Source of the DNA: an uncultured Acidobacteriota bacterium
GTDB lineage: Bacteria; Acidobacteriota; Vicinamibacteria; Vicinamibacterales; UBA2999
Assembly (NCBI GenBank): GCA_963750995.1
Contig: CAVVST010000003.1
Coordinates: forward strand, 217,018-281,017
DNA length: 64,000 nucleotides
Direction: 5' to 3'
The notes beneath the pieces are model-generated. The model was given only the letters and a program-made list of their open reading frames with translations. It ran no database searches and was not told where the DNA came from. A program made the translations under genes and the position numbers. This document shows positions 17,115-50,802 of the stretch, one piece after another. Position 1 is the stretch's first letter; each line of letters begins with the position of its first letter.

Positions 17115-17175
17115 CTCCGACCCTCCATCCGGTTGCGCATGAATCCCGATACAGGTCACATCAGCGCGAGCGGCG

Positions 17176-22634: not shown

Positions 22635-22647
22635 GGTAAGGAGCGTC

Positions 22648-26434: not shown

Positions 26435-26447
26435 CACGGAGGGAATC

Positions 26448-29390
26448 GTGCTGAGCATTGGCAAGATTGGATTGGTCTTCGGGTTCGCGGTGTTGTTGCC
26501 GGTCGTGGCGTCCGCGCAGGCGACGATCAGCGGCGTGGTGAGAGACGCGTCGGGCTCTGTGCTTCCCGGCGTCACGGTCGAAGCGGCGAGTCCGGCGCTG
26601 ATTGAAAAAGTCCGGACGGCCGTGACGGACGGCACCGGACAGTACGCGATCGAGAATCTGCGGCCCGGGCTGTACACGGTGACGTTCACGTTGCCGGGTT
26701 TCGCGGTCGTGCAGCGGGAAGGAGTCGAGCTGTCGGGGAGCTTCACCGCTCGCATCAATGCCGACCTGCGCGTGGGCGGGATCGAAGAAACCATCACGGT
26801 CACTGGAGAGTCACCGGTGGTTGACGTGCAGAGCACACGGCAGCAGCGGGTGCTGGATCGTGAGGTCCTCGATGCGCTACCCAGTTCAGGACTCAGAACT
26901 GCTCTGGGCGTGCTGATCCCGAGCGTCGATTTCCGGCGGCAGGATGTCGGTGGGGCGGGGGTGAGGGCCGTGACCGGAAACATGACCGCCCATGGCGCCA
27001 GGTCGGAAGATGCCGGGACGACCTTGCATGGAGTGTCGATTGCCACGTTCAGTACCGGCGCCGCGACCGCGACCATCTTCTTGAATCCGATGGGCCTTCA
27101 GGAAGTGACCATTGACACCGGGTCGAACAATGCCGAGCTGCACGCGGGAGGTGTCCGCTCCAATTACACCCTTCGCGAAGGGGGCAACACGTTCAACGGG
27201 GTCATTTTTGGCGCCTACGCACCCGGCAAGTTGCAGACCGACAACCTGACCGACGACCTGCTCGCCCGCGGACTGAGCACGCCGAACAGCATTAAAGCGA
27301 ACTGGGACATCAATCCCGCCTTCGGCGGCCCGATTCTGCGCGACAAGATCTGGTTTTTCGCGGCGGCGCGGTACAACGTGACCGCCGACTACGTGGCCGG
27401 ACTGTACTGGAATCGCAACACCAACAATCCCAATGCCTGGACGTACGAACCCGATACCAGCCGCCGGGTATGGAACGAGCAGAAGCAGCCGGACACGCAG
27501 CTTCGCCTCAGCTGGCAGGCGACCCCCCGGCACAAGCTGGGGTTCACTTGGTACGACACTACCTATTGCTTCTGCCCGACCGACGCTTCGCTCACGCGCT
27601 CCTGGGAAGCCGGCGTCGGCCAAGACTACCCGCTGCAGCGCCTGGTCGCCGGCGACTGGACGTTTCCGGCCACCAACCGCATGCTCTTCGAGGGGAACGG
27701 GCAGGTCTACAAGTCGGAAAGCAACCGTTCGCCCTGGAATGGTCTGGCTGCGGGGATGATCCCGGTGCAGGAGCAGTCGACGGGCATGTTTTATCGCGCC
27801 GGCGACCAGTACCGGATCCAGCCTCAGAGCATTTACACGCTCCGAGGCGCCTTCTCGTACGTGACCGGTGCGCACGCGTTCAAGGTCGGAGCCGCCAACA
27901 AGAGCGGTGGCACCGACCTGGCCGATTACGACCTCGTGCCGGTGAGCTATCGCTTTAGAAACGCGGTACCCAACCGCATCACCCAGCGTGCTCTGGGGGG
28001 ATGGAGTGCAGACGTCGATGCCGATCTGGGACTCTACGTCCAGGACCGCTGGACGCTCAGCAACCTGACGCTGAATTACGGGCTGCGGTACGACTTCTTC
28101 AGCAACAGCTACCCAGAACAGCACATCGGTCCGACGACCCTCGCGCCGACGCGGAACATCACCTTCCCTGCGCAGGATGGCTGGACCCTTCACGACCTGT
28201 CGCCGAGGCTCGGGGCTGTGTACGACCTCACCGGCACGGGGAAGACCGCGCTCAAGGCGAGTCTGAATCGCTACGTGATCGCCATGGGGCCGGATGTCAG
28301 CTTCATCCAGCTCGCCAACCCGTCGCGCAATCTGGTCACATCGGCGACCCGGACGTGGACGGACGCCAACCGCAATTACGTCCCCGAGTGCGATCTCCTC
28401 AACGTCAGATCGAACGGGGAGTGCGGCGCGCTGTCCAACGAGAACTTCGGCACCGTAGTCACGAACCTGACCTACGACGAAGAGACGCTGACCGGATGGG
28501 GCAAGCGGAATTTCAACTGGGAGGTCTCGGCGGGTGTGCAGCAGGAGTTGTTGCCGCTGGTCTCCGCGGAGATCAATTACTTCCGCCGCTGGTACGGCAA
28601 CTTCGTCATCGTCGACAATCTCGCGGTGGGGCCGGCGGACTTCGATCGGTTCGTCATCACCGCGCCGCAGGATCCACGGCTGCCCGGCGGCGGCGGCTAC
28701 CAGGTGGAAGGGTATGACATCAAGCCGGCGAAATTCGGCGTCGCGGCGCAGCCGTACGTGACGCTCTCGCGCAAGTACGGGCAGCAGCAGGACTACTGGC
28801 AGGGCATGGACTTCATCGTGAACGCGCGGCCGCGTCCTGGCGTGATGTTCCAGGGCGGCCTGAGCACGGGACGGCGCGTGGAAGACAACTGCGACGTCAT
28901 AACGAAGGTGGACAACCCGAGCGCCTTGTATTGCCACCGCACCGAGCCGTGGCTCACCCAGGTCAAGGGATACGGCTCGTACACAATTCCGCGGGTGGAC
29001 GTGCAGTTCAGCGGGACCTACCAGACCAAGCCGGGCCCGCTGGTCCTGGCCATCTATACAGCGACCAACGCCGAAGTGGCGCCGAGTCTTGGCCGCAATC
29101 TGGCGGGCGCCGCACCGAACGTCGACATGCACCTCGTCTCGCCTGGCCCGTACACGACCACCAACGGCGGATCAGGGGAGATGTACGGAGAACGGCTCCA
29201 CCAGGTCGACCTGCGCGTCTCGAAGCATCTGAGCGTCGCCGGCACACGCACGCGGCTGAACGTCGATATCTACAACGCCCTCAACTCGAGCGCGGTGCTG
29301 TCGCAGAACAACACCTTTGGCGCCTGGCAGACTCCGCTCGAGATCCTGGTGGCCCGGTTCTACAAGTTCAGCCTGCAGTTTGACTTCTAG
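26448..29390 (+). CDS. TonB-dependent receptor (CarboxypepD_reg-type N-terminus), intact (TBDR2)
   Basis: GTG at 26448 follows GGAGGG and lies after the amidase stop at 26432-26434. Signal ...LLPVVASAQA, then ISGVVRDASGSVLPGVTVEA. C-terminal ...LVARFYKFSLQFDF with terminal Phe. Confidence 0.9.
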   Translation: MLSIGKIGLVFGFAVLLPVVASAQATISGVVRDASGSVLPGVTVEAASPALIEKVRTAVTDGTGQYAIENLRPGLYTVTFTLPGFAVVQREGVELSGSFTARINADLRVGGIEETITVTGESPVVDVQSTRQQRVLDREVLDALPSSGLRTALGVLIPSVDFRRQDVGGAGVRAVTGNMTAHGARSEDAGTTLHGVSIATFSTGAATATIFLNPMGLQEVTIDTGSNNAELHAGGVRSNYTLREGGNTFNGVIFGAYAPGKLQTDNLTDDLLARGLSTPNSIKANWDINPAFGGPILRDKIWFFAAARYNVTADYVAGLYWNRNTNNPNAWTYEPDTSRRVWNEQKQPDTQLRLSWQATPRHKLGFTWYDTTYCFCPTDASLTRSWEAGVGQDYPLQRLVAGDWTFPATNRMLFEGNGQVYKSESNRSPWNGLAAGMIPVQEQSTGMFYRAGDQYRIQPQSIYTLRGAFSYVTGAHAFKVGAANKSGGTDLADYDLVPVSYRFRNAVPNRITQRALGGWSADVDADLGLYVQDRWTLSNLTLNYGLRYDFFSNSYPEQHIGPTTLAPTRNITFPAQDGWTLHDLSPRLGAVYDLTGTGKTALKASLNRYVIAMGPDVSFIQLANPSRNLVTSATRTWTDANRNYVPECDLLNVRSNGECGALSNENFGTVVTNLTYDEETLTGWGKRNFNWEVSAGVQQELLPLVSAEINYFRRWYGNFVIVDNLAVGPADFDRFVITAPQDPRLPGGGGYQVEGYDIKPAKFGVAAQPYVTLSRKYGQQQDYWQGMDFIVNARPRPGVMFQGGLSTGRRVEDNCDVITKVDNPSALYCHRTEPWLTQVKGYGSYTIPRVDVQFSGTYQTKPGPLVLAIYTATNAEVAPSLGRNLAGAAPNVDMHLVSPGPYTTTNGGSGEMYGERLHQVDLRVSKHLSVAGTRTRLNVDIYNALNSSAVLSQNNTFGAWQTPLEILVARFYKFSLQFDF

Positions 29391-29877: not shown

Positions 29878-30249
29878 CTACGGCTGGAGCAGCGGGATGC
29901 TCTCGATCGGCCGCGGCATGGGACGCGACTGTAGATACGCGTGAATGTGCCCGAGCTGCTCGTCTGAGACGACCCTCTCCGGATAGTTCGGCATCCGCTC
30001 CGGCGGTCGCCGAACGTATGTCGTGAACGCCGCGCGGGGAAGCGGTCGCGGGGCGATTCTCGGCGCGGCGCCCCCTTGGCCCTCGTAGCCATGGCACGTC
30101 CAGCAGCCCAAGCTGACGAACAGCTTCTTGCCGGCGTCGGCGTCGCCGGCCGGCGTCGTTTGCGCTGGCGTTTGCGCTGGCGTCTGGGCCGCGGCGCCTG
30201 CCGCCGCGAGCACGAGCACCGCGAGCAACATCAACATCCAGGTCTTCAT
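29878..30249 (-). CDS. monohaem class I c-type cytochrome (exported)
   Basis: GGAGG Shine-Dalgarno sequence. MKTWMLMLLAVLVLAAAGAAAQ signal, CWTCH haem site, and a distal Met candidate in RMPNYP. The start is 11 nt after the ThDP2 stop. Confidence 0.8.
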   Translation of the reverse strand: MKTWMLMLLAVLVLAAAGAAAQTPAQTPAQTTPAGDADAGKKLFVSLGCWTCHGYEGQGGAAPRIAPRPLPRAAFTTYVRRPPERMPNYPERVVSDEQLGHIHAYLQSRPMPRPIESIPLLQP

Positions 30250-30260
30250 GCCGTGACCTC

Positions 30261-32165
30261 CTACCGGGGTTGCGTCACCACGTCGATGAGCGACGGCTCG
30301 CCGCTCTTCACGACCTCGAGCGCGCGGCGGATCGCCGGTCCGAGTTCGTTCGGGTTGGTAATCGGCCCCTGCGCGTGGACACCCATCCCCTGCGCGATCC
30401 TCGCGAAGTCGACGTTCGGGTTCTCGATCGTCGTTCCGATGTGCGCACGTGTCATGTCGCGATTGCGCCAACTGGCCATGCGCTGGAGGTGCATGATCTC
30501 CTGGTGGTAGGCGCGGTTGTTGTGCATCACCGACAGCAACGGAATTCGATGATGCGCGGCCGTCCACCAGACGCCGGGCGCGTAGAGAAAGTCACCGTCG
30601 CTCTGAATGTTCACCGAGATGCGCCCGTGTTTCTTGTTGGCGAGCGCGCCGCCCACCCCCGCCGGTGCGCCATAGCCGACGCCCGTGGCGCCCGATGAGT
30701 TGCCCGGGTTGTGGTACGGCTGGGTGAAGTTCCACAGACGGAACACCCAGTCGCTGGTGTTGCCGCTTTCGGACACAAACGACCAGTCCTCGTTCCGGAC
30801 CTGCGCCCAGACCTCGGCGGCCAGGCGCGCCGTGCTGATTGGCGACGCGTCCCAGGCGTATGCGGCCTCCGCGCGCGCCGCCTCCAGACCTCGAACGTGC
30901 GCCTGCTCCAGCCGCTGCCGGCGTTCTCCAAAGGCGCGGCGCCGGTCGTCGGTGACCAGACGTCGACACGCGTCGATGAGCGCCGGGAGCGTGGCCTCTG
31001 CGTCGGCGGCCATTGCCACGTCCACCTCCGCGTAGCGCTGGAAGTCCTGATAGTTGCTCTTCATGTAGAGGGCGGTCGACTCGATACTGATGAGCCGGAC
31101 GCCCGGCCTGGCGCGGGGGAAGGCCGTCAACTCGAGGCCCAGAATGACATCGGCATCGGCCATCGGCTGACGGCTTGCGGTCTGGTTCAGCGGATGGCGA
31201 GAGGGAAAGTTCATCCGCCCGCGCTGATCGATGACCGACGCCTGTAGCGTCTCGGCCAGCTCGATCAGCAAGGCCATCCCGGCTGGCGTCCGCGCGGCGC
31301 GATCGGCCACGATGACGGGGTTCTGAGCGTTGACGAGCAACCGTGCGGCTTCGGCAACCGCCCCCGAATCGCCCTGGGGCGGAGTCGCCACCGTCAGGCG
31401 TGGCACACGCAGCCGCGAGGCAACCTCCGGTGCAATGGGATCTTCCTGGAGATGGGCGTCGATGACGATCACGACCGGCCCCATCGGGGGCGTCATCGCG
31501 ATCTTGTAGGCGCGCACGGCCGACTCGGCGAAGTGCCCCAACGAGGCCGGCGTATCGTCCCACTTGACGAAGTCGCGGACCAGGGCAGCCGCGTCCTGCA
31601 CGCTGTGCTGCCACTCCACGCTCCCTCCCCGCTCCGCCGCATCCAGGTGGTTGCCCGCAAGGATGAACACCGGGACGCGGTCACAGTACGCGTTGTAGAC
31701 GGCCATCGTCGCGTGCTGGAGCCCGACCGTCCCATGACACAGCACGGCCATCGGCTTGCCTTCGACCTTGTAGTAGCCATGGGCCATCGCGACGGACGAT
31801 TCCTCGTGGCAGCAGGTAAGGAACTCGGGCGACTGGTTGTTGCCGTAGTTGATGATCGACTCGTGGATGCCGCGGAAGCTCGAGCCGGCGTTCGACGCAA
31901 CGTATTCGAAGTCGAGCGACTTGAGGACGTCCAGCATGAAGTCGCTGCCCGGCCGGCCGGTCGGACCCGCCTCGACCTCGACCACCGGGTCGACCTCGCG
32001 GACCCCCACCGGCGGCGTGGTGGGCCCGGCCCCCTGGGCTGGCGCGGCCTGAGGTACCGCGGCGGGTGCGGCGTTCGCAGCCGCGTCCGGCACCAGCGCC
32101 GCAGCGCCGGTCACGGCGGCACCTTTCAGAAAGCTCCGGCGATCGACGGCAGGTTTCCTCGACAT
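30261..32165 (-). CDS. Tat-exported thiamine-diphosphate-dependent enzyme, copy 2
   Basis: Start at the internal ATG 32165: MSRKPAVDRRSFLKGAAVTGAAALVPDAAANA (RRxFLK). CCHEESSVAMAHGYY; IQSDGDFLYA...LSVMHNN. The longer ORF-track start (32516) overlaps divergent TBDR3. Confidence 0.85.
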   Translation of the reverse strand: MSRKPAVDRRSFLKGAAVTGAAALVPDAAANAAPAAVPQAAPAQGAGPTTPPVGVREVDPVVEVEAGPTGRPGSDFMLDVLKSLDFEYVASNAGSSFRGIHESIINYGNNQSPEFLTCCHEESSVAMAHGYYKVEGKPMAVLCHGTVGLQHATMAVYNAYCDRVPVFILAGNHLDAAERGGSVEWQHSVQDAAALVRDFVKWDDTPASLGHFAESAVRAYKIAMTPPMGPVVIVIDAHLQEDPIAPEVASRLRVPRLTVATPPQGDSGAVAEAARLLVNAQNPVIVADRAARTPAGMALLIELAETLQASVIDQRGRMNFPSRHPLNQTASRQPMADADVILGLELTAFPRARPGVRLISIESTALYMKSNYQDFQRYAEVDVAMAADAEATLPALIDACRRLVTDDRRRAFGERRQRLEQAHVRGLEAARAEAAYAWDASPISTARLAAEVWAQVRNEDWSFVSESGNTSDWVFRLWNFTQPYHNPGNSSGATGVGYGAPAGVGGALANKKHGRISVNIQSDGDFLYAPGVWWTAAHHRIPLLSVMHNNRAYHQEIMHLQRMASWRNRDMTRAHIGTTIENPNVDFARIAQGMGVHAQGPITNPNELGPAIRRALEVVKSGEPSLIDVVTQPR

Positions 32166-32352
32166 GGCGCTCCCCTTATGAGTCCGACGCGCAGTGTATC
32201 CGAATCGGTACCCGGTTGCGGCAGGCCAGGGGGGGCCCGATTGACTCCGTCCAGCATTGATGATACCTACGCTGGCGCGGGCGGCCGGCCATTGGCGTGG
32301 GTCGCCTGACACGGAAGCGGAATCCAAGATAGCGGAGATGGGCGTGCAAAAA

Positions 32353-35333
32353 ATGAACAGAATCGGAGCGATGTTCGTGATCGCGCTGCTGCTTCCGGCT
32401 GCGGCGTTCGCACAGGCCGCGATCAGCGGCGTGGTGCGAGGACGCGTCGGGAGCGGTACTGCCGGGCGTGACGGTCGAGGCGACGAGCCCGGCGCTAATC
32501 GAGAAGGTCCGGTCAACCGTGACGGACGGCACCGGTCAGTACGTAATCGAGAACCTGCGGCCCGGCGAGTACACGGTGACGTTCACGCTCCCGGGTTTCG
32601 CGGTCGTGCGGCGTGAAGGCGTTGCCCTGCAGGGCACCTTCAACGCCCGGATCAACGCCCAGCTCCGCGTCGGCGGCCTTGAAGAGACGATCACGGTCAC
32701 CGGAGAGACGCCGATGGTCGACCTGCAGAGCGCCACCCGGCAGGAGGTGCTGGATCGTGAAATCCTCGATACCCTCCCGTCGAGCGGATCCAGAACGGCG
32801 TTGGGCGCGCTGATCGCGGGGGTCGACTTCCGGCGGCAGGACGTCGGCGGCGCGGGGACGGCCGCCCCCACCGGCAACATGACCGCCCATGGCTCCTACT
32901 CTGAAGATGCAGCGACGACGCTGAATGGCATTTCGATCGCCAGTTTCGGGGTCGGTGCCGCGACCTCGGTCCTCTCCATGAATCCGATGGGCGTCGAGGA
33001 GATCCAGATTGACACGGGGTCGAACAACGCCGAGCTGCACGCGGGCGGGGTCCGTACCAACTACATCCTCAAGGAAGGGGGCAATGCGTTCCACGGGGTC
33101 GTGTTCGGCGCGTACGCCCCCGGCGGACTTCAGAGCGACAACCTGACGGACGACCTGAGAGCCCGCGGCCTCCCCACGCCGAACAGTATCAAGGCGAACT
33201 GGGACATCAATCCCGGGTTCGGCGGCCCGATTCTGCAGGACCGCATCTGGTTTTATTTCGCCGCGCGGTACAACGAGAACTCCGAGTACGCGGCGGGACT
33301 CTACGAGAACAAGAACCTCAACAATCCCAATGCCTGGACGTTCGAACCCGACACCACGCGCCCGGTGGCGAACGAGCAGAGGCAGCCGGATGCGCAGCTT
33401 CGCGTGACGTGGCAGGCGACGCCTCGGAACAAGGTCGGATTCACGTCGTACAACACCACCTATTGCTTCTGCCCGAGCAGCGCCTCCTCCACGACTGCCA
33501 GGGAGGCCTCTTCGCATGCCGACTACCCGGAACAGCGTCTGATCGCGGGCGACTGGACGATGCCGGCGACGGACCGACTGCTGTTCGAAGTGAAGGGGCA
33601 GTTCTACGGAGCGCAAAGCAACCGTTCGCCCGCGAGCGGCCTGGATCCGTCGATGATCAACGTGCAGGAGCAGGCCACGGGCATGTCGTACCGCGCAGGC
33701 AACGCGTACCGGTACCAGTTTCAGGATATGGGCAATATCGCGGGGTCCACGTCATACGTGACCGGTGCCCATGCGTTCAAGACCGGATTCAATTGGAAGC
33801 TGGGCACCCTCCACTTCATCGACTACGACCTCCAGCCGGTGAGCTATCGGTTCGAGAAACGCGGTACCCAACCGGATCACACAGCGCGCGCTGGGCGAGT
33901 GGAAGGCCACCGTCGATGCCGATCTGGGGTTCTTCGTGCAGGATCGCTGGGCGTTCCGCAACCTGACCATGACCTATGGGCTGCGGTACGACTACTTCAC
34001 CTTCCACTACCCTGAACAGCACATTGGTCCGGCGGTGCTCGCGCCGAATCGCGACATCACATTTCCCAGGATGGACGGCTGGAGCCTGCAGGACCTGTCG
34101 CCGCGATTCGGGGCGGTGTACGACCTCGGCGGCACGGGGAAAACCGCGCTGAAGGGCAGTCTGAATCGCTACCTGCTCGCCATGGGGCCGGACGTGGGCT
34201 TCGTCCAGCTGGCCAACCCGGCCCGCAATCTTGTGACACAGGCCACCCGGTCGTGGGCTGACGCCAACCGAGACTACGTGCCGAACTGCGATCTCACCAA
34301 TCCGAGGGGGAACGGGGAATGCGGCGCGTTGTCGGACCTGAACTTCGGCACCACCGTTTCGAGGGTGAGCTTCGACGAGGAGACGCTGACAGGGTTCGGC
34401 AAACGGACTTACAACTGGGAGGTCTCCGCCGGTGTGCAGCATGAGCTGCTCCCGACCGTCTCGGCGGACGTCACCTACTTCCGCCGCTGGTACGGCAATC
34501 ACGTGGTCACAGACGATCTCGCGGTAGGGCCTGAGGATTTCGATCGGTACAGCATCACCGCGCCGCTGAATCCGGGACTCCCCGGCGGCGGCGGCTACGT
34601 GGTCGACGGACTCTACGACATCAAGCCGGAGAAATTCGGCGTGTCGGCCGATCCGTTGATCACGCTCGATCGCCGGTTTGGGAAGATCAAGGACCAGTGG
34701 GATGGCGTCACCGCCTCGGTGAACGCCCGGCCGGGTGGGGACATATTCTTGCGGGCGGGGGTGAGCACGGGGCGGCGGCTGGAGGACATCTGCAGCGTCG
34801 TCGCAGCGACGGCGAGAGGTGAATCGCCAAATTACCGTTACGTGTGGGACAGCCCCAGCCAGCTCTACTGCGAACGCAAGGAGCCACTGCAGACGCAATT
34901 CAAGGCATTCGGTGCGTACACGATTCCCCAGCCGTTCGATGTCCAGTTCAGCGCGACCTACCAGGGCAAGCCGGGCCCGCTGATCCTGGCCGCGTACACG
35001 GCAACCAATGCGGAAGTGCGGCAGAGCCTCGGCCGGGATCTGGCAGGGGGCACGCAGAACGTCGACGTGCACCTCATGGCGCCGGGCCAGTTCAGCCGCG
35101 GGGACATGGGCATTGGGGCAGGGGAGCGCTTGGACCGACTCCACCAGGTCGACGTGCGGGTTTCGAAACTCCTCCGCTTCGCAGGGACCCGCGTCAGAAC
35201 GAACGTCGATATCTACAACGCCCTCAACTCGGCGGCGGTGCTGAGTCACAATGTCGCGTACGGCAACTGGCTGGCACCCACCGAGGTCCTGCTGGGGCGG
35301 TTCTTCAAGTTCAGCGTCCAGTTGGATTTCTGA
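32353..35333 (+). pseudogene. TonB-dependent receptor with two single-base frameshifts (TBDR3)
   Basis: Three ORF pieces: 32257-32616, 32468-34015 and 33936-35333. Removing the G at 32440 (gtgcgaGgacgcg) restores ISGVVRDASGAVLPGVTVEA. Removing one A of the aaa at 33857-33859 restores SYRFENAVPNRITQRALGEW. It ends ...FFKFSVQLDF. Confidence 0.85.
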
Positions 35334-35342
35334 TCGAATGTG

Positions 35343-35382
35343 CCGGGGACGGGAAGGTCACGCAGGGCCTTTCCGTCGCCGG
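35343..35382 (+). terminator. hairpin downstream of TBDR3
   Basis: ccggggacgggaagg (35343-35357) pairs with cctttccgtcgccgg (35368-35382): 14 of 15 positions including one G:U, with a 10-nt loop. There is no clear U-tract. Confidence 0.3.
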
Positions 35383-35433
35383 GATGTTGCCGCAACCGCC
35401 AGAACGAGCGCAGCCTCTTAGCGTGAGTCGGAT

Positions 35434-35580
35434 TCACTCCTCCCGCCAGATGATTGCCTCGATCACGTCCGTCTTGGCATTCGCATAGTCGTTCACGGCC
35501 GCCCATTCACGTCTGGTCAGTTCTCGCTTGGTCTGCTCGTAGAGACGCTTATCTTCCGATGCCCAATCGCTGCCCGGTTC
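35434..35580 (-). pseudogene. GrpB-family C-terminal remnant
   Basis: ...DKRLYEQTKRELTRREWAAVNDYANAKTDVIEAIIWREE* resembles the C-terminal ~45 aa of GrpB-family proteins. No N-terminal domain is present upstream. Confidence 0.3.
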
Positions 35581-35611
35581 GTGGACAAACGGTGGACAAG
35601 AAGATGACCGA

Positions 35612-35671
35612 CGGAACTCGATCACCGTATCGCCGGCGGGCGAGGAGAACGACCGGCGCGACGTGATGATC
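35612..35671 (-). repeat. ectopic 60-bp exact copy of an internal segment of lipocalin-like gene 23629-24126
   Basis: Identical to 23729-23788. Here it is non-coding, lying between the GrpB remnant and the aldolase upstream region. Confidence 0.9.
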
Positions 35672-35682
35672 TCCGAGAAATC

Positions 35683-35712
35683 TGGACTTGCGGAGAAGAG
35701 GTTGGGTATAAA
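35683..35712 (+). promoter_or_regulatory. conserved upstream element / promoter candidate of the aldolase gene
   Basis: gagaAatctggacttgcggagaag...ataaaggtgc...acaggagaaca is conserved with 42256-42311, upstream of the decayed copy. A possible reading is TGGACT-N18-TATAAA. Confidence 0.25.
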
Positions 35713-35745
35713 GGTGCCGGCCGAGCGCCCGACAGGAGAACATCA

Positions 35746-36700
35746 ATGACAAAGACGATGCAACTGAGGCTGATGAGTGGTGTGATAGCCCTCGTGGTCG
35801 GGGCAGGTACCTTGTGGGGACAGGGCAACCCCACGACCGGTGGCCCCCTGGATCCGCTGCTGCTGGAAGATCTCGCCCTGATCGTACCGCATCCTCACCG
35901 ACCATGACGTCATGGACGGCCTCGGACACTCGAGCATCAGACACCCACAGAATCCGAACCGCTACTGGATCTCGCGCAATCGCGCGACCGGGTTGGTCAG
36001 ACCCGAGGATCTGATGGAGATGGACCTCGACTCGCGTCCGGTCGATCCGGACGCGCGGTCCTACAGCGAAGTGGCCATTCACGCGGAGATCTACAAGCTG
36101 CGACCCGACGTCCATGCGGTCATCCACCATCACGCGCCGGGCACGGTGTCGTGGGGCATGGGAAAAATCCCGATGATGCCGATGAACCAGAGCTCCCGCT
36201 GGATGCTCGACGGCGTGCCCTTCTTCGACTACCGCGACCTGAGTAAGCTGATTCCGGGCGACAAGGGCTGGGAGGACACGAACCTGATCGACACGCAAGC
36301 CCGCGGCACTGCCGTGGCCCGGGCGCTCGGTGCGAGCCCGGCGCTACTGCTGGTCAATCACGGCGCTGTGGTGGTCGGCGCCTCGATCTACGAGGCGGTC
36401 GGCCGCAGCATCTACATGGAAATCAACACCGGAGTGCAGACCGCCGCCATGCTGAGAGGCGGAGAGGTCACCTATTACGACGCCGCGGGTGAGCTGAGAG
36501 CGACCGGCGCGCGCAGCGACTTTGCGCGCCAGTGGGACCTCTGGAAGGCCGAGTCATGCGCCAAGGCCGGCTTCTGCAAGCCCGAGCTCGAGGCCGGGCG
36601 TGGAGCCGGCGGGCGTGGCGGACGTGCCGGCGGCGCGGGGGGACGCGGCGGCGGCGGAGGTGGACGCGGACGCGGCGGACGCGGAGCCCCTCCCGAATAA
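35746..36700 (+). pseudogene. class II aldolase/adducin-family protein with signal-like N-terminus and RGG-rich tail; single frameshift
   Basis: AGGAGA Shine-Dalgarno sequence. ATG 35746: MTKTMQLRLMSGVIALVVGAGTLWGQ... runs to a stop at 35905. ORF 35912-36700 carries GLGHSSIRHP...EVAIHAEIYKLRPDVHAVIHHHAP. Removing the A at 35881 (ctgAtcgtacc; the decayed copy has ctgtcgtacc) joins them. Confidence 0.75.
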
Positions 36701-36758
36701 TATGCCGTCGCCCGCGCCGGGAGCGCGCTTCACACAAGGCGGGCTCCTCAGCGCGTCT

Positions 36759-37190
36759 CTAATGCAGCAGCGGAATAGTAGAAACGTCCGGCGGCTTGGG
36801 CACCGTCTGCAAGAACGCATAGATATCCGCCAATTGCTGGTCGGACAGCACTTTCGCGGTGTACGGCGGCATTGAATTGACGGGGACGCGGGCTCGCTGC
36901 ACGAACACCTTGAACGCCAGCATGCCCGGGTTCGGTGCGAGTCGCGGCCCGGGACCGCCACCCTGGCCCTCACCGTTGTGGCATAGCTCACAGCCGGCAC
37001 TGACGTAGAGTCGCTTGCCGTTTTCGACGTTCCCGGCGGGCGCCGCGGGTGTGGGCGTCTGTTCCGCCGGTTTGTCCTGCGCCAGCGCAGAGGGGTGTCC
37101 GAGGATCGAGGCCCCGACGGCTGCGGCCAGCGCCAGGGACCACGCTGCGCCCAGCGCGCCGGTCTGCCGCCGGAAACGTTCGGTCGTCAT
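36759..37190 (-). CDS. monohaem class I c-type cytochrome (exported)
   Basis: Signal ...AAWSLALAAAVGASILGHPSALAQ. CELCH haem site, with a distal Met candidate in SMPPYT. The start is 21 nt after the ThDP3 stop. Confidence 0.8.
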   Translation of the reverse strand: MTTERFRRQTGALGAAWSLALAAAVGASILGHPSALAQDKPAEQTPTPAAPAGNVENGKRLYVSAGCELCHNGEGQGGGPGPRLAPNPGMLAFKVFVQRARVPVNSMPPYTAKVLSDQQLADIYAFLQTVPKPPDVSTIPLLH

Positions 37191-37211
37191 GAGAACCTCC
37201 TTCGGCTGCCT

Positions 37212-39119
37212 TCAGCGAGGCTGCGTCACCACATCCAGCAACGCGGGTTCACCCTTCTTTACGACGGCAATCGCCCGCCGAAGCGCGGGTCCGAGGTCGT
37301 TGGGGTTGGTGATCGGCCCCTCGGCGTACAGGCCCATGCTCTGGCCCATCTTGGCGTAATCGATGTTCGGCTCCGTGATTGCGGTCCCGATGCCGGCCCG
37401 GTCGAAAATGCCACGCTCGCGCCGGTTGCCCATGCTCTGGATGTGCATCACCTCCTGGTGATAGGCGCGGTTGTTGTGCATGACGGAGAGCAACGGAATG
37501 CGGTGATGCGCGGCCGTCCACAGCGCACCGGGCGCGTACATCAGGTCTCCGTCTTTCTGGAAGTTCACGTAGAGTCGTCCGTGCTTCCGATGCGCCAGGG
37601 CAGCCCCCACGGCGGCGGGTAACCTGCCGCCGGAGCCCTGCGCGCTCCGGAAGTGATCGTACCGGTAGTATTTGTCGTAATCCCACTGAAAATTTGCGAG
37701 CTCGCGTCCTCCGGCCCAGTCCTCGTTCTTCACCTGCGCCCACACCTCGGCCGCGATGCGCGCCAGGCTGATGGGACTGGAATTCCACCCGTACGTCGCC
37801 TCCACCCGCTCGCGCTCGATGGCCTTCTGCCTCGCCTCGGCCAGCATCCTGCCCCGGTTCTGAAACGCCGTCCTGTGATTGGAGGTCAGCAGGCGATTGA
37901 CCGCCTCGGTCAATACAGGCAGCGTCGCCTCCGCGTCGGCGGTGATGGATAGATCGAACTCTTGATAGCGCTGGAAATCCTGGTAGTTGGTTCGCAGCGG
38001 AGACTCGGCGATGCTGATGTTGAGCACCTTCACGCCGGGCCTGGTGACAGACCGTGTGGTGCGCTCCTGCTGGTCGCGAACAGTGTGCAGCATGCCCCAG
38101 AAATCCTCGACCTCGAGGCCCAGGATCACATCCGCGTCGCGCAGCGCCGCCCGGCTCGTTATGAGGGGATGGCGTGACGGCAGATTGCTCTCTTGATCCA
38201 CCACCGGCACCTGCAGCGCCTCGACAAATGTAATGAGGCGCTCCATGCCCTCCTGGCTGCGCGTGGCGCCCCCGGCGATGACCACCGGGTTCTCCGCGGT
38301 TACGAGCAGACGGGCCACTTCCGCCACCGACCCGGCATCCCCCCAGGGAGGCGCATCGAGCGCCAGCTTCGGGATGCGCAGGTTCGCATCCTTGGGAACC
38401 GGCCGTTCCTGCAGTTCGCTGTCCGCCACCAATACGACTGGCTCCCGCGGCAGCGCCATGGAGATCTTGTACGCGCGCACCGCGGACTCCGCGAAATGAG
38501 GCAGGGACACCGGGTTGTCGTCCCACTTGGTGAAATCGCGGACGATCGCCGCGGCGTCCTGCGCGCTGTGCCTCCACTCCACTCCAGGCCGCCGCATCGT
38601 CGCATCCAGGGTGTTGCCGAGCACCAGGAAGACCGGTACGCGGCCCACCCAGGCGTTGTAAATGTTCATCGCGGCGTGTTGAAGGCCCACGGTGCTGTGG
38701 GCCATCACCAGCATGGGCTTTCCTTCGACGTTGGCGTAGCCATGCGCGATGCCGACCGACGACTCTTCGTGACAGCACGTCAGCAGCTCCGGCGATCGGT
38801 TGCCGCCGTAGTTGATCAACGACTCGTGCAGTGAGCGGAAGCTCGATCCGGGGTTGGCGGCCGCGTACTCGAAGCCCAGCGACTTCAGCACATCCACCAT
38901 GAAATCGGATCCCGGGCGGTCCGTCGTCAACACCTGGACCTGGCCGACGGGATCACCTTCGGCCGGTCCCGGCCCCAGCTTGGGAGCCGGAGGAGCCGCC
39001 ACTTGCGGTGCCGCGATCGCGCCTGTCCCCATGGCCAGCGTGCCGATACCGCCGGCTGCGGCGCCCTTCAGAAATCCACGACGACCCGGCAGATCAGTGT
39101 CTTTTCTGGAATTTGCCAT
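37212..39119 (-). CDS. Tat-exported thiamine-diphosphate-dependent enzyme, copy 3
   Basis: Start at the internal ATG 39119: MANSRKDTDLPGRRGFLKGAAAGGIGTLAMGTGAIAAPQ. CCHEESSVGIAHGYA; FQKDGDLMYA...LSVMHNN. Close paralogue of copy 2. Confidence 0.85.
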   Translation of the reverse strand: MANSRKDTDLPGRRGFLKGAAAGGIGTLAMGTGAIAAPQVAAPPAPKLGPGPAEGDPVGQVQVLTTDRPGSDFMVDVLKSLGFEYAAANPGSSFRSLHESLINYGGNRSPELLTCCHEESSVGIAHGYANVEGKPMLVMAHSTVGLQHAAMNIYNAWVGRVPVFLVLGNTLDATMRRPGVEWRHSAQDAAAIVRDFTKWDDNPVSLPHFAESAVRAYKISMALPREPVVLVADSELQERPVPKDANLRIPKLALDAPPWGDAGSVAEVARLLVTAENPVVIAGGATRSQEGMERLITFVEALQVPVVDQESNLPSRHPLITSRAALRDADVILGLEVEDFWGMLHTVRDQQERTTRSVTRPGVKVLNISIAESPLRTNYQDFQRYQEFDLSITADAEATLPVLTEAVNRLLTSNHRTAFQNRGRMLAEARQKAIERERVEATYGWNSSPISLARIAAEVWAQVKNEDWAGGRELANFQWDYDKYYRYDHFRSAQGSGGRLPAAVGAALAHRKHGRLYVNFQKDGDLMYAPGALWTAAHHRIPLLSVMHNNRAYHQEVMHIQSMGNRRERGIFDRAGIGTAITEPNIDYAKMGQSMGLYAEGPITNPNDLGPALRRAIAVVKKGEPALLDVVTQPR

Positions 39120-39136
39120 GATGGATAATCGGCGCC

Positions 39137-42128
39137 TCAGAAGTCGAACAGGACGCTGAACTTGACGAACCGGGCCATCAGAACCGCGGTGGGCCGCTGC
39201 CACGCGGGCCCGTAGGTGAAGTTCTGCGCCTGCACCGCGTTCGAGTTCAACACGTTGAAGATATCGGCGCTCACCGTCGTGCGGCTGCCGCCGAACCGAA
39301 GGATCTTCGCCAGGCGCAGGTCGACCTGGTTCGCCCGCTCCCCATACTGCGTCCCCGGCGCGAGGAGGTTCACCGTCACGTTGCGCGTGCCACCCGCGAG
39401 ATCGCGGCCCAGCGACGCTCGCACCTCGGCCGTCGTCGCCTGGTAGTTCGCCGCGATCTCCTGACGTGGGGTCCGCTCGCCCGGTGCCGGCTCGCTCCGA
39501 AGCGATCCGCTCACCTGCACGTCCGCGCGCGGGATCGTGTACACCCCGGAGAACTTGACCCTCGTGAGCCACGCTTCCGCGACATGGCAGTACAACGGGC
39601 TCGGATTACCCAGCAGCGGCCGGATCTGGCAGTCGTCCCTGACGGCCCTCCCAGGTACTGGTACCGCCCTGCAGCAGCACGCCCGCCCTGGGGCGCGCGT
39701 TGAGGGTGACATCGACGCCGTGCCAGTACTCGGTTTTCTTCCCGATGTTGGACGCGCGCGTGATGAAGTTGTCCACCTGGCCGAACTTTTCCGGCTTGAT
39801 GTCGAACAGGCCGTCAATCACGAAGCCGCCGCCGCCCGGCAGCCGCGGGTCCACCGGCGCCGTGATGCTGAACGGATCGTAGTCGGCCGCGGTCGTCGCC
39901 CGGTTCTGCGTGACGACGAGGTTACGGTACATCCGGCGGTTGTAGTTGACCTCCGCTGACACTCGCGGCAGCAGCTCGTGCTGCACGCCCGCCATGAACC
40001 CCCAGGTATACTCGCGCCGCCCCCACCCACGCAGCATATCGGGGTCGTTGAGGGACACGACGCCCCCGCGCCCCACCACGGCACCGGGCGCCACATCGGC
40101 GACCGCCCCGAACCCGGCGTTCGCCATGGCCCCGCACTCACCGTTCGCGCGCGGGTTGAGGAGGTCGCACTCAGGGACGAAATTGCGATTCGCGTCGGTC
40201 CAGGACCGCGTGGTCTCCGTGGCGAGATTTCTGATGGGGTTGACCGCGTCAAGTTTGATCCCCCCGATGCTGTCCGGATACCTGCCGAACGTCGACTTGA
40301 TGGCGGTCTTTCCCGTCCCAAACAGGTCGTAGGAGATCCCCATCCGAGGCGAGATGTCGTGATAGTTCATCACCCCGCGGGTCTCAGGGAACGTGAGGTT
40401 TCGTGTGGGCGCCAGCAGCGCAGGCCCGGCGTGCTGCTCGGGGAAGCCAGCCAGGAAACGATCGTACCGCAGGCCATAGTTCAGCGTCGCGCGTTGGAGG
40501 GTCCACTGATGATGGGCGAACACCCCCATGTCATGCTGCATCTCGTACTCGGAGGTCAACGGCAGCGACCGCTGGGTGAGTTGATTGGGCACGCCTCCGC
40601 TGAACCGGAACTCAAGCGGGTTGAGGTCGAAAGAGCGCTCACTCACGTAGCCGAACCTGTCGGTGATGCCCGCCTTGAATGTGTGGGCTCCGAGGATGTA
40701 CGACGCCACGCCCCGTAAGCCGATCGATTCTGTCGCCTCAAACGCATAATCGGCCGCGGTGGGCGCACGGTAGGACAACCCGATCGATTGTTCCACGACG
40801 CCAATCATGGCCGGGTTCAGCTCTCCATAGGGCGCCACTTCACGGCCCGTCTTGACGAGAGATGCGTTTGCCTCGATCAGGAAGCGAGTCGTCGCCGGGA
40901 CGGTCCAATCGGCGACCACGGTTCGCCGCGGGGCGTACACTCGCCTTTCTGAGGCTTCGAAGGCGATGGCCGTACTGGCGTTGTTCGGGGTGTGGGCGGC
41001 GGTCGCCTCCATCCACGTCAGCCCGATCTTGTGCCGCGGTGTCGCCTGCCATGTCAGGCGGGCCTGCCCGTCTTTTTGCCACTGGGTATTGGTGACGGGC
41101 CGACTGACGTCGGGGTCGTATGTCCAGACGGCAGGATTGTTGAAGTTGCGGTCCTCGAACACGCCGCCCGCAAACATCGACCCGGACCTGTTCTGATACG
41201 CGCCAAAGAACCAGAGCCGGTCGCGCAGCACGGGGCCGCCGAGCCCCACATTGAGGTTCCAGTTGCTATCGACGGCATCGGGCGTGGGCAGCCCACGATC
41301 CTTCAGATCCTGCGTCAGATTGCTGCCCTGCATCGCGCTGTTCGCGCCGGTGGCGAAGAACGTGCCGTTGAAGCGGTTGCCGCCCTCCCGCGGAATGCGA
41401 TGGAGCCGCACGCCACCCACCATGCTTTCAGTGTCGCCCGCCGCGATGTCCACGACGACTTCCTCGGTGGCGGCCTGGTTCATCAAGATGCCAAAAGCAC
41501 TGCCGGATCCGTTGAGCATGCTGATCTCCGCACCGGCGATGGTGTGGCGCGCCTCCGTCGATCGGCCCTCGTGCATCCGTACAGAGGGGTTTGCCGGTCT
41601 CCCCCCGGCGCCGCCCACGTCGTGCCCGCCGCTGTTCACGGCCCCGGGGATGAGGGAGGCCGCGTCGTACTCCGACCGGCCGGTCGGAATGAGTTGGAGC
41701 ACCTCGCGGTTCAGCACCTGCTGCCGCGTGGCGCTCTGCACGTCCACGACCGGCGTTTCGCCCGTCACGGTAATCGTTTCGTCGAGCGACCCCACGCGCA
41801 GGTCGGCGTTCACCGTCGCCACGAACGAGCCCGTCAGCTCAATCCCCTCGCGCTTCACGACGGCGAACCCGGGCAGTGTGAATCTCACGCCGTAGACACC
41901 GGGTGCCAGCTCCACGATGCGGTACTGGCCATTCCCATCGGTCACGACCGTCCTGACGCCTTCAATCAGCGCCGGACTCGACGCCTCGACCGTGACACCA
42001 GGCAGCACCGCGCCCGAGGTGTCCCTCACGACTCCCGTAATGGACGCCTGGGCGTACGCCGCCGCCGGAACGACCGCCAGCCATGTGAGCACCATGAACG
42101 CGAGTCGTAGATATGGACGTAGACTCAC
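39137..42128 (-). pseudogene. TonB-dependent receptor, single frameshift near the 3' end (TBDR4)
   Basis: GTG at 42128 after GAGGAGG. ASITGVVRDTSGAVLPGVTVEASSPALIEG.... ORFs 39606-42158 and 39137-39817 join if plus-strand A 39653 is removed (QGGTSTGRAVRDDCQI...). It ends ...MARFVKFSVLFDF. Confidence 0.85.
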
Positions 42129-42313
42129 CCTGACCTCCTCGCACCAGTTAAACGGCAACGTACGACGGGCATCTTACGCCCGTCGTCGACCAAGTCAACC
42201 AGAAGTTCAATAGAAGTTCGGCCTTCCCCTTCGCCCCATGCCACGACAGCGTCCTGAGAATCTGGACTTGCGGAGAAGGCGTGGAATAAAGGTGCGCTCA
42301 ACAGGAGAACACG

Positions 42314-42828
42314 ATGACCAAGACGATGCGAGTGAGGTTGGTGAGCGCCGTGATCGGGGAACCCTACGACCGCAGGTCCGGTGGATCCGCTGCTGCTCCA
42401 AGATCTCGCCCTGTCGTACCGCATCCTGACTGACCGCGGCGTCATGGATGGCCTCGGGCACGGGAGCATCAGACACCCGGCGAATCCGACGCACTACGTC
42501 ATTTCGCGTAACCGGGCGACCGGATTGGTCTCACCCGGCGATCTCATCGAGATGGACCTCGACTCGCGCCCCGTCGATCCGAACGCGAGGTTGTACGGCG
42601 AAGTGGCCATACACGCGGAACACCTACTATGACGCCGCGGGTGAACTGAGAGCGACCGGTGCGCGCAGCGACTTTGCGCGCCAGTGGGACCTCTGGAAAT
42701 ACGAGTCGTGCCTGAAGGCCGGGTTCTGCAAGCCGGAGCTCGAGGCCGGGCGTGGAGCTGGCGGGCGCGGCGGACGTGCCGGTGTCGCGGGAGGACGCGG
42801 CGGCGGACGCGGCGCAGCACCCGAATAA
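42314..42828 (+). pseudogene. decayed copy of the class II aldolase gene (internal ~380-bp deletion plus frame breaks)
   Basis: Shares the upstream element and start (MTKTMRVRLVS) with 35746-36700. The pieces lie in three frames: DPLLLQDLALSYRILTDRGVMDGLGHGSIRHP...EVAIHAE is joined directly to YYDAAGELRATGARSDFARQWDLW...GRGGRAG... The catalytic core is missing. Confidence 0.8.
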
Positions 42829-44615: not shown

Positions 44616-45473
44616 ATGTTGATGGTCGGCCTGTTGGGTGCGGTGTTGGTCGTTCCCGTTCACGCCTTCGCGCAGAGCAGCTCGACGACGACCTGGCCCG
44701 ATCCGGTTCCCGATCGGCGGCCAGTCGCCGAGAAGGACAAGAAGCCGGCGCCGCGGCGCACCATTGCCGGAATGTGGGGCTCGAGGCTGGGCAACCAGGC
44801 AAAAGGCGTGCAGTTGAGGCCCAACGACGGCAGTCCGGAAAACGAACTGCCGTACACGCCCCTCGGCCTGGAACTGTACAAATCCCATAAGGCCCTCGAA
44901 GGGGCCAACGCCGTTCCCCCGGCCCAGACCAACGATCCCAGGGTTGCCTGCGAGCCGTTGGGGTTTCCCCGCTATAACCACTACGACCTCGGGGTTCAGA
45001 TCTTCCAGGACGAGTTCAAGGTGGCGATTCTGTACCACTACGACTACCGGTGGCGCATCATCTGGACCGACGGCCGGTCATTCCCGAAGCTGGTGGACGG
45101 CGGCGTGGAAATAGACGGCCAGTATCGAGAGCAGCGGTTCTTCGGATATTCGGTCGGCAGATGGATAGACGATTACACGCTCGAGGTTCAAACGGTCGGG
45201 ACGTTGCCCGAAGACCGGGTATGGCTCGACAACACCGGCCGGCCGATCAGCGACCAGGCGCGCATCACCGAAACGTTCCGGCGGTTGGACAACGACACCC
45301 TCGAGTGGTCGGAGACGATCGACGACCCGAAGATCTATACGCGGCCGTGGCAGACGATGAAGATACCGATGACGTTGCAGGATCCCCGCACCGACGTGCT
45401 GACGCGCTACTGTTCGCCATATGAAACCGATGCCTACAACAAGGCGTATGGCGATTCCGCGAGCGGCAAGTAG
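44616..45473 (+). CDS. secreted 'WEGDTLVVDT'-family protein, divergent copy 4
   Basis: MLMVGLLGAVLVVPVHAFAQ. The motif is degenerate (VGRWIDDYTLEVQTVG). C-terminal region LEWSETIDDPKIYTRPW fits the family. The start is uncertain: the SD-proximal ATG at 44597 is out of frame by 1. Confidence 0.6.
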   Translation: MLMVGLLGAVLVVPVHAFAQSSSTTTWPDPVPDRRPVAEKDKKPAPRRTIAGMWGSRLGNQAKGVQLRPNDGSPENELPYTPLGLELYKSHKALEGANAVPPAQTNDPRVACEPLGFPRYNHYDLGVQIFQDEFKVAILYHYDYRWRIIWTDGRSFPKLVDGGVEIDGQYREQRFFGYSVGRWIDDYTLEVQTVGTLPEDRVWLDNTGRPISDQARITETFRRLDNDTLEWSETIDDPKIYTRPWQTMKIPMTLQDPRTDVLTRYCSPYETDAYNKAYGDSASGK

Positions 45474-45506: not shown

Positions 45507-45923
45507 ATGAGAAACAGGCTGGTCATCGTGTTCACTCTGGCTGCGGCGATCCTGGCTTCGACTCCGTTAATCGCGCACCACACCGGATCTACTCTGTTGT
45601 CCGAAACCACCGTGACGCTGAAGGGCGTGGTGAAGACATGGCTGTGGTCCAATCCGCATTGTTTGCTGACGCTCGAGGTCACCGGGGCTGACGGCCAGGT
45701 CGTGCAGTGGGTGGTGGAAGCCCAGGCGCCGAACAGCATCTATCCCGCCGGCTATCGCAATAACACCTTCAAGCCCGGGGACCAGGTGACCGTCACATTG
45801 AACCCGGTTGCGAATGGCCGTCCCTACGGTCGCATCGCGCGGGTCGTGCTCGCTGATGGGACCACACTGGGCGGTGGGGGCGATGGAGGCGGAGCCCGCG
45901 GCCGCGGCGCAGCAGCGCAGTAA
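45507..45923 (+). CDS. small secreted 'A-HH / WxNPH' protein, copy 3
   Basis: MRNRLVIVFTLAAAILASTPLIA|HHTGSTLL...WLWSNPHCLLTLEV. Gly-rich tail. Confidence 0.7.
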   Translation: MRNRLVIVFTLAAAILASTPLIAHHTGSTLLSETTVTLKGVVKTWLWSNPHCLLTLEVTGADGQVVQWVVEAQAPNSIYPAGYRNNTFKPGDQVTVTLNPVANGRPYGRIARVVLADGTTLGGGGDGGGARGRGAAAQ

Positions 45924-48429: not shown

Positions 48430-48458
48430 GCACACTCTCTGTCCCAGCGAATAGAGGA

Positions 48459-49597: not shown

Positions 49598-49741
49598 AAG
49601 ACCCTCGTTTGCATGCCGGGTAAACGACGGAAATCGAAGCAGAGTATACAGTGGCAGGTCTGGCCCGGTGCCGGCCAGCTCGGTGGACCAACCCGATCTC
49701 AACCTTGGGGAGATTCGGTAGAATCGCGGTGGAGGTGTCGC

Positions 49742-50710: not shown

Positions 50711-50802
50711 GGAACGCGCTCCTTTCGTCAGCGATTCTAAGACAGAACCGAGGCCGTACGCGCAATCCGCCCAAACCCAGGACAGAGGGTCCTCCTGCTC
50801 CA

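Follow-up and report, generated by a model that had tools for sequence, protein, structure and literature searches.

Why should three enzymes of a superfamily at home in the cytoplasm each begin with a twin-arginine translocation (Tat) signal and be followed by the gene of an exported cytochrome c? The question is raised by a 64,000-nt stretch of DNA (the whole of it hereafter called the window) from an uncultured Acidobacteriota bacterium of the order Vicinamibacterales (assembly GCA_963750995.1, contig CAVVST010000003.1, positions 217,018 to 281,017 of the forward strand), which encodes three thiamine diphosphate (ThDP)-dependent proteins of the acetolactate synthase/benzoylformate decarboxylase superfamily, here designated ThDP1, ThDP2 and ThDP3. 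All enzymes of this superfamily that we know to have been characterised are cytoplasmic, and the electron outlets that we know of within it are flavin adenine dinucleotide (FAD), lipoamide, NAD+ or iron-sulfur clusters. The reading favoured here, with a probability of roughly 55%, is that each ThDP enzyme and its neighbouring cytochrome would form a two-component periplasmic oxidative decarboxylase or aldehyde oxidase in which the enzyme reduces its own cytochrome c. The parts belong to familiar families and the combination is new; the pairs probably represent an undescribed type of periplasmic oxidising enzyme.

The six genes lie on the minus strand as three pairs. ThDP1 (18353-20335, 660 amino acids), which belongs to a separate lineage, is followed by cyt c1 (17715-18353), a 212-residue dihaem cytochrome c with CVGCH and CQLCH motifs and matches to Dehyd-heme_bind and Cytochrome_CBB3; the stop codon of the former and the start codon of the latter share one base (TAATG). 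ThDP2 (30261-32165, 634 amino acids, PYR-M-PP domains) is followed after 11 nt on the same strand by cyt c2 (29878-30249), a 123-residue monohaem class I cytochrome c with a CWTCH motif, a Sec-type signal peptide and matches to Cytochrome_CBB3 and Cytochrom_C. In the third pair, ThDP3 (37212-39119, 635 amino acids) precedes, by 21 nt and again on the same strand, cyt c3 (36759-37190), a 143-residue monohaem cytochrome c with a CELCH motif and a signal peptide. ThDP2 is 59% identical to ThDP3 and 28% identical to ThDP1, and the identity between cyt c3 and cyt c2 is 44-48%. The initial annotation, made from the letters of the sequence, had described these six open reading frames, their haem motifs and a signal-peptide-bearing cytochrome c gene after each ThDP gene, and all of this is borne out, with gaps of -1, 11 and 21 nt.

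The superfamily assignment in that annotation also holds. Pfam families TPP_enzyme_N, TPP_enzyme_M and TPP_enzyme_C are matched in that order and above their cut-offs in all three ThDP proteins, which carry the catalytic Glu and the GDG-X(24-27)-NN motif for Mg-ThDP; E121, D523, G524, N549 and N550 (ThDP2 numbering) are invariant in 67 family sequences. The nearest solved relatives are the benzoylformate decarboxylase (BFDC) entries 4q9d (E-values of 1e-29 to 6e-33) and 1bfd (about 1e-19 to 1e-24), together with benzaldehyde lyase (BAL), although identity to BFDC, the closest of them, is only about 22%. An AlphaFold2 model of ThDP2 (mean pLDDT 74.7, the signal region being disordered, as one would expect) has the decarboxylase-family fold. 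Foldseek searches with this model returned BAL, GCL, BFDC, HACL and OXC about equally (E-values of about 1e-30, top target-normalised TM scores of about 0.75-0.8) and, because they do not separate these enzymes, give no clue to the substrate.

A closer comparison with BFDC separates the window enzymes from it. E121 of ThDP2 aligns with the BFDC residue E47 and H144 with H70. Equivalents of BFDC S26 and H70 are kept in ThDP2 and ThDP3, ThDP1 has Gly at the H70 position, and the BFDC H281 region is not alignable with the window proteins. The BFDC pocket residues A460, L461 and F464 correspond to Q555, E556 and H559 in ThDP2, and the stretch after the NN motif reads R-A-Y-H-Q-E-x-M-H where BFDC has G-T-Y-G-A-L-R-W-F; the full BFDC set of S26, H70, H281 and a hydrophobic pocket is not found in these proteins, and the residues suggest a substrate pocket that is polar and not aromatic or hydrophobic. 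Among family models, the BFDC model NF005485 scores 181, 164 and 128 bits against a cut-off of 493, the top NCBIfam model for the window ThDP proteins, NF006203 (PRK08327), scores 213, 258 and 218 bits against 456, and no NCBIfam model reaches its cut-off for any of the three.

Two structural details of these enzymes were recorded in passing. At about residues 349-354, the position of the BFDC H281 region, a loop of about 13-16 residues (WGxxxTVRDxxxRT...), present in ThDP3 and in most members of 645-655 amino acids, is missing from ThDP2 and its 90-95% identical relatives (634-636 amino acids). Residues 118-119 of ThDP2 and their equivalents in ThDP3 are vicinal cysteines placed directly before the catalytic His-Glu (TCCHEESS); they recall the vicinal disulfide beside pyrroloquinoline quinone (PQQ) in methanol dehydrogenase and are not general in the Tat-bearing clade, other members of which read TCL, TAL or TVT.

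The arrangement of an enzyme followed by a cytochrome extends far beyond the source genome. A search of 5.8 billion proteins with ThDP2 gave at least 8000 matches (90%-identity clusters), all with E-values of 1e-20 or lower; the 120 matches listed are about 650 amino acids long, most carry a precomputed TAT_signal, and those with names come from Acidobacteria/Vicinamibacterales. A scan of genomes, limited to one per species, yielded at least 583 confirmed matching stretches, and among the best 80 of these, which were examined, all but two are labelled Acidobacteriota (Vicinamibacterales, Terriglobia and Bryobacterales), the two being labelled as other taxa. These 80 loci and two metagenome loci make up the set of 82 related loci. 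An open reading frame with a CxxCH motif starts between -30 and +200 nt from the ThDP stop codon in 60 of the 82, often overlapping it or lying within 20 nt, and 13 of the other 19 loci examined have a cytochrome c-like frame that is convergent, upstream or slightly further off. In an all-against-all clustering of about 870 neighbouring open reading frames, the cytochrome was the sole conserved neighbour (49-60 loci), the next family reaching 19 loci. Pairwise identities of enzymes and cytochromes co-vary (Mantel r = 0.72, a value reached by none of 999 permutations).

The relation also holds when approached from the cytochrome. A homologue search with cyt c2 found 261 proteins. Three distant members of this set, with 58-67% identity and located on long contigs, were examined, and each is encoded directly downstream of a Tat-ThDP gene. 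The window cytochromes pass the Cytochrome_CBB3 or Cytochrom_C cut-offs and have the marks of class I c-type cytochromes, namely CxxCH, a distal Met and an export signal. Across about 60 aligned partners, GC(Y/W/E)xCH and (Q/R)MPxY are conserved and N-terminal hydrophobic signal peptides are present; in cyt c2 the Met-ligand motif is the conserved MP.Y. The C-terminal half of cyt c1 matches the SorB model NF052246 at 49.5 bits, against a cut-off of 93.

Cultured Proteobacteria possess the same pair. In a tblastn search of plasmids, Burkholderia sp. SFA1 (BSFA1_84730; N-terminus MTARRTFLKEAIAAGAS) and Caballeronia zhejiangensis (WP_244808613) each showed a protein of 51% identity, followed 8 nt later by the gene of a 206-residue dihaem cytochrome (BSFA1_84740 and WP_244808614, respectively), annotated as 'c-type cytochrome' in Caballeronia, whose first domain is homologous to cyt c2 and cyt c3 (GCYECHG...QMPLYS...IHAYL). 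Novosphingobium sp. KACC 22771 encodes a 47%-identical Tat-ThDP protein (TRRNFL), followed by two cytochrome c genes and then a TonB-dependent receptor. ThDP1-type homologues closer than 27% identity were not found on plasmids of cultured strains. With this presence in cultured strains and the adjacency in 60 of 82 loci, the cytochrome adjacency for which the initial annotation had proposed a neighbourhood survey is conserved outside the source genome, and the pairing of a ThDP enzyme with a cytochrome c is a conserved module and not a local accident.

The export signal is likewise a family trait. The twin-arginine motifs of the window proteins are VSRRDFLAATAVTGIALGAG in ThDP1, VDRRSFLKGAAVTGAAAL in ThDP2 and GRRGFLKGAAAGGIG in ThDP3; their N-terminal cores (SRRDFLAAT, DRRSFLKGA and GRRGFLKGA, respectively) lead into a hydrophobic segment and then an Ala-rich, AxA-type cleavage region, so that direct reading recognises a Tat signal in all three. 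RRxF/L occurs in 118 of 119 ThDP2-type and 111 of 115 ThDP1-type full-length homologues, and the RR motif is kept in 80 of the 82 related loci. Homologues starting downstream of the RR motif would have spoken against the twin-arginine signal that the initial annotation had seen on each enzyme; the motif is instead kept in more than 95% of both families. Tat export of the ThDP enzymes is what we infer from these N-termini. The contrary view, that the RR motif does not function in export, that the enzyme stays in the cytoplasm or is membrane-anchored facing it, and that the cytochrome adjacency has no functional meaning, can appeal to the Pfam TAT_signal model, which passes its cut-off for one of the three window proteins (ThDP2, 26.3 against 22.7 bits). 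It is nevertheless very improbable, given an S/T-R-R-x-F-L motif with hydrophobic stretch and AxA-type site in more than 95% of both families, the absence of the motif from a sister clade that is shorter by the length of the signal, and an adjacency in 60 of 82 loci that co-diverges with the enzyme.

The phylogeny of the enzymes places this signal in two separate lineages. A HMMER search with ThDP2, covering 1.84 billion cluster representatives, showed a sharp split among its relatives: full-length relatives of at least 45% identity are mostly 620-665 amino acids long, align from about residue 2-8 and nearly all carry RR, and those of 42% identity or less are mostly 560-617 amino acids long, align from about residue 66-74 and have no signal. 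In a neighbour-joining tree (BFDC root, 525 columns, 100 bootstraps), the ThDP2/3 Tat clade is monophyletic with a bootstrap value of 95, groups with its signal-less sisters at 99 and nests within these cytoplasmic relatives; the ThDP1 clade is monophyletic at 100 and was joined to the ThDP2/3 clade in 0 of 100 replicates. Three ThDP1-type genes that were looked up lie in three different neighbourhoods, and each is followed by a cytochrome of about 190 residues, dihaem and of the cyt c1 Dehyd-heme_bind type (partner seen in loci L083, L084 and L086-88), beyond which the flanks differ completely. Two distinct ThDP lineages accordingly combine a Tat signal with an adjacent cytochrome c, and the cytochrome family differs between them; we regard this as the strongest comparative argument that enzyme and cytochrome work together.

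The signal-less sisters, uncharacterised proteins named 'thiamine pyrophosphate-binding/requiring protein' and lying near NF006203/PRK08327, provide the closest contrast to the window enzymes. They are 35-42% identical to them over the whole catalytic core and have nearly all conserved active-site positions in common with the Tat clade, but they lack the Tat signal, are about 60 residues shorter and, in the two cases examined, have no cytochrome c neighbour. The two, both on plasmids, come from Salipiger, in which two aldehyde dehydrogenases, an alpha-hydroxy-acid oxidase, a TTT carboxylate transporter and a LysR regulator surround the gene, and from Phyllobacterium, in which its neighbours are a TTT transporter and an NAD(P) oxidoreductase. 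This layout is that of a mandelate-type 2-oxoacid decarboxylase pathway, leading from hydroxy acid to 2-oxoacid to aldehyde to acid.

This likeness lends substance to an explanation in which the window enzymes would be periplasmic decarboxylases, lyases or carboligases without redox activity, the cytochrome c acting as acceptor for another periplasmic dehydrogenase (a molybdenum (Mo)-hydroxylase, an aldehyde oxidoreductase or a PQQ-like enzyme) whose role would be to oxidise the aldehyde product or to supply the 2-oxoacid substrate. In their active site the window enzymes hardly differ from the cytoplasmic sisters, which are apparently ordinary decarboxylases working with separate dehydrogenases. 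CoxL/M/G-like Mo-hydroxylase subunits recur near the pair in Vicinamibacterales, where some operons run ThDP, cytochrome c and molybdenum-cofactor (MoCo) enzyme, and cytochrome c is used by such Mo-hydroxylases as the membrane aldehyde dehydrogenase and NicAB. In most loci, the three of the window among them, the cytochrome nevertheless has no such second dehydrogenase nearby; its translation is coupled to that of the ThDP gene (TAATG overlap or gaps of 2-20 nt); and the pairing recurs in another ThDP lineage, where the cytochrome belongs to a different family. A non-redox role for the enzyme is on this balance unlikely, while being the strongest competitor of direct cytochrome reduction.

Several further observations weigh against direct reduction of the adjacent cytochrome by the ThDP enzyme. 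Beside the pair, about 11 related loci have a Mo-hydroxylase large subunit and 8 a PQQ-like propeller, and the cytochrome could serve one of these enzymes instead. In about six loci, no cytochrome c lies within 6 kb. The window also has an orphan dihaem cytochrome c gene (11176-11679, minus strand; CVTCH and CQQCH), 52% identical to cyt c1 and with no ThDP gene adjoining, so that the cyt c1 type is not strictly tied to one; the orphan may be what is left of a fourth module or may indicate that this type also has other partners. Among the 150 best representatives, the longest of which has 665 amino acids, there are no fusions of a ThDP enzyme to a cytochrome. Only N371, E556 and E102 stand out between the periplasmic clade and its cytoplasmic sisters; the alignment offers no sequence mark of a novel route for electrons, and the underlying chemistry could be simple decarboxylation. 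Finally, the case for the absence of FAD comes down to the missing glycine-rich motif in the middle domain.

That last point bears on how electrons might leave ThDP. The redox-active members of the superfamily that we know to be characterised (POX, PoxB and CDH) carry FAD, and the window enzymes could in principle pass electrons from ThDP through FAD to haem c, their middle domain binding the flavin as in pyruvate oxidase or PoxB; the TPP_enzyme_M domain is present, and a second cofactor would be compatible with Tat export. In FAD-binding members, however, a loop of the middle domain is glycine-rich; its counterpart reads NPVIVADRAAR in ThDP2, NPVVIAGGATR in ThDP3 and NPVFVVGPEVF in ThDP1, and resembles that of FAD-free BFDC, NPAIVLGPDVD, as checked against the BFDC alignment. 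The best sequence relatives, BFDC and BAL, are free of FAD as well, and pyruvate oxidase models score 47-126 bits, far below their cut-offs of 638-742; neither the glycine-rich dinucleotide motif nor the model scores of the FAD-type enzymes are found. A flavin-mediated route is accordingly quite improbable, more so than a non-redox enzyme, and the window proteins are probably ThDP enzymes without flavin.

In the mechanism proposed for direct cytochrome reduction, the ThDP enzyme would fold, bind ThDP-Mg and oligomerise in the cytoplasm and be exported in the folded state through Tat, while the small cytochrome c would be exported by Sec and receive its haem in the periplasm; Tat exports folded, cofactor-loaded, oligomeric proteins, and haem c is attached in the periplasm. 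The ThDP ylide would there add to a carbonyl substrate, most likely a polar 2-oxoacid (with loss of CO2) or an aldehyde, and generate the C2-alpha carbanion/enamine. In place of protonation and aldehyde release, the dedicated cytochrome c would oxidise the enamine in two one-electron steps, probably directly and without a flavin; the acyl-ThDP would be hydrolysed to the carboxylic acid, and the reduced cytochrome would hand its electrons to the respiratory chain. A periplasmic enzyme and a cytochrome c would in this way stand in for a cytoplasmic ThDP decarboxylase and an NAD-dependent aldehyde dehydrogenase. In transketolase, PDC and BFDC, the ThDP enamine gives up its electrons to one-electron acceptors such as ferricyanide, and a ThDP radical takes part in the PFOR reaction, which makes direct oxidation by haem chemically plausible. 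Electron transfer to the cytochrome, the lack of a flavin and the class of substrate are in this scheme what we infer from sequence comparison.

A bolder and more tentative version of this proposal, for which the odds are somewhat less than even, holds that these would be the first ThDP:cytochrome c oxidoreductases, a new class of the EC 1.2.2 type, free of flavin and iron-sulfur clusters, in which a ThDP radical passes electrons to haem c one at a time. They would have arisen in at least two lineages with two cytochrome families and would form a large and so far unrecognised group of respiratory 'fuel' enzymes in soil Acidobacteriota. If true, ThDP catalysis would gain a new compartment and a new electron acceptor, and the periplasmic dehydrogenases a new type of cofactor. 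The family is large and concentrated in the Acidobacteriota, which are abundant but poorly understood soil bacteria, and its reaction could be a significant route for oxidising organic acids and aldehydes outside the cytoplasm. The occurrence of the pair in cultured Burkholderia, Caballeronia and Novosphingobium makes the hypothesis open to direct test.

Receptor-like genes beside two of the pairs had led to the suggestion, in the initial annotation, that the system is fed by TonB-dependent uptake. TBDR4 (39137-42158, minus strand), named as a TonB-dependent receptor (TBDR) and comprising a CarboxypepD_reg domain and an outer-membrane beta-barrel, lies 17 nt upstream of ThDP3, and the co-directional order TBDR4, ThDP3, cyt c3 with gaps of 17 and 21 nt is as first described. 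TBDR3 (32381-35333, plus strand), with CarboxypepD_reg and a beta-barrel, is divergent from ThDP2; a third such copy lies at 12450-15438 (plus strand) and an intact one at 26364-29390. These genes match CarboxypepD_reg and OMP_b-brl_4, and not Plug or TonB_dep_Rec. Three of the four are split by one frameshift each, near 39652 in TBDR4, near 33855 in TBDR3 and near 13924-13985 in the third copy, with no homopolymer run at these sites and with homology to the intact copy continuing seamlessly in another frame; the frameshifts could reflect assembly error, pseudogenes or a programmed event. Among 81 related loci, about 4-9 have a TBDR-like gene within some 6 kb and none has the adjoining co-directional arrangement of the window; Novosphingobium is the one other case with a directly adjacent receptor. 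The scarcity of receptors near related loci, together with the frameshifts in TBDR3 and TBDR4, leads us to reject TonB-dependent feeding as a family trait, and the receptor link is treated as local and not as part of the ThDP-cytochrome c system.

Other neighbours offer weak hints at the substrate. In a Vicinamibacterales sub-clade (loci L004-L009, L014, L094, L095 and L098-L100), a conserved cluster of alpha/beta-hydrolase, MFS transporter, Tat-ThDP and cytochrome c genes stands beside CoxG, CoxM (FAD), Amidohydro_2 and CoxL (MoCo), and may be a full catabolic pathway that contains the module. In Bryobacteraceae (loci L063-L069 and L079), a class II aldolase gene lies directly downstream of the ThDP(-cytochrome c) genes, and the Caballeronia and Burkholderia copies adjoin a cluster of Rieske dioxygenase, PdxA-type dehydrogenase, MFS transporter and porin. 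As a matter of speculation, such neighbours hint at the breakdown of aromatic or heterocyclic compounds bearing carboxyl groups, which would first be processed in the periplasm and then taken up by the MFS transporter. The window itself has a class II aldolase/adducin-family gene (35912-36700, plus strand) convergent with cyt c3. A fragment of 83 amino acids just past TBDR4 (42381-42632, plus strand) duplicates its N-terminal part and includes about 22 N-terminal residues that the gene at 35912-36700 seems to lack.

Other families recur within the window. An uncharacterised secreted family of about 290 amino acids, with no Pfam match and the conserved motif W-x-G-D-T-L-V-V-D-T, has five copies in the window (16170-17159, minus strand; 21795-22634, 22582-23598, 44616-45473 and a fragment at 11613-12098, all plus strand) and is the commonest neighbour of the ThDP gene after the cytochrome (19 of 82 loci). 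Six DUF6152 paralogues (15606-16115, 17176-17718, 45507-45923, 49229-49702, 49613-50119 and 50333-50866) encode small secreted proteins whose predicted mature N-terminus begins with a conserved H-H-(S/T/Q) motif, reminiscent of an N-terminal histidine metal site. Their genes often adjoin those of the 290-residue family, with the same pairs in related loci L001, L083 and L086, and a co-directional run comprises ThDP1, cyt c1, a DUF6152 gene, a 290-residue protein gene and another DUF6152 gene. Two further paralogues without a Pfam match (20375-21544 and 47125-48858, both minus strand) are possibly beta-propellers, and their family is found near ThDP genes in five other loci. Across the whole window, there was no match to the TPP riboswitch or any other Rfam family, and a promoter and terminator scan gave one weak promoter-like site before TBDR4 (42198-42171), no more than expected by chance, and no notable terminators.

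The database names of these ThDP proteins are generic ('acetolactate synthase large subunit-like', 'twin-arginine translocation signal domain-containing protein' and 'thiamine pyrophosphate-binding protein'). A full-text literature search turned up neither a periplasmic ThDP enzyme nor a ThDP:cytochrome c system, and structure and family-model searches also gave no characterised orthologue; the initial annotation, too, knew of no characterised periplasmic ThDP enzyme:cytochrome c system. Two leads from these searches were set aside as irrelevant: a Nitrotoga genome paper, and an acetone-induced ThDP enzyme of Desulfococcus, which has no signal peptide.

Among known systems, BFDC (MdlC, EC 4.1.1.7) and benzaldehyde lyase share the three-domain ThDP fold of the window enzymes and the lack of an FAD-type motif; BFDC, unlike them, is cytoplasmic and has neither a signal peptide nor a cytochrome partner. 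Pyruvate oxidase/PoxB (pyruvate:quinone oxidoreductase, formerly 'pyruvate dehydrogenase (cytochrome)') belongs to the same superfamily and performs the chemistry proposed here, the oxidative decarboxylation of a 2-oxoacid to an acid with electrons passed to the respiratory chain. It differs from the proposal in using FAD as intermediate carrier and a quinone as acceptor, and in being a cytoplasmic peripheral membrane protein. The PFOR family, including oxalate oxidoreductase, provides the precedent for direct transfer, namely flavin-free oxidative decarboxylation on ThDP in one-electron steps through a ThDP radical. It belongs to a different branch of the ThDP superfamily, a POR_N match in ThDP1 being weak and below threshold; its enzymes are cytoplasmic, sensitive to oxygen and dependent on [4Fe-4S] clusters and ferredoxin. 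The operon logic of an exported catalytic subunit with a small dedicated c-type cytochrome is that of PQQ methanol dehydrogenase with cytochrome cL, of SorAB sulfite dehydrogenase, of the flavocytochrome c enzymes and of quinohaemoprotein amine dehydrogenase (QH-AmDH); SorA, as is proposed for the window ThDP enzymes, is a cofactor-loaded subunit exported through Tat, and cyt c1 weakly resembles SorB and the haem domain of QH-AmDH. Whereas the known periplasmic dehydrogenase:cytochrome pairs use PQQ, Mo, flavin or cysteine tryptophylquinone (CTQ), the pairs in the window would use ThDP.

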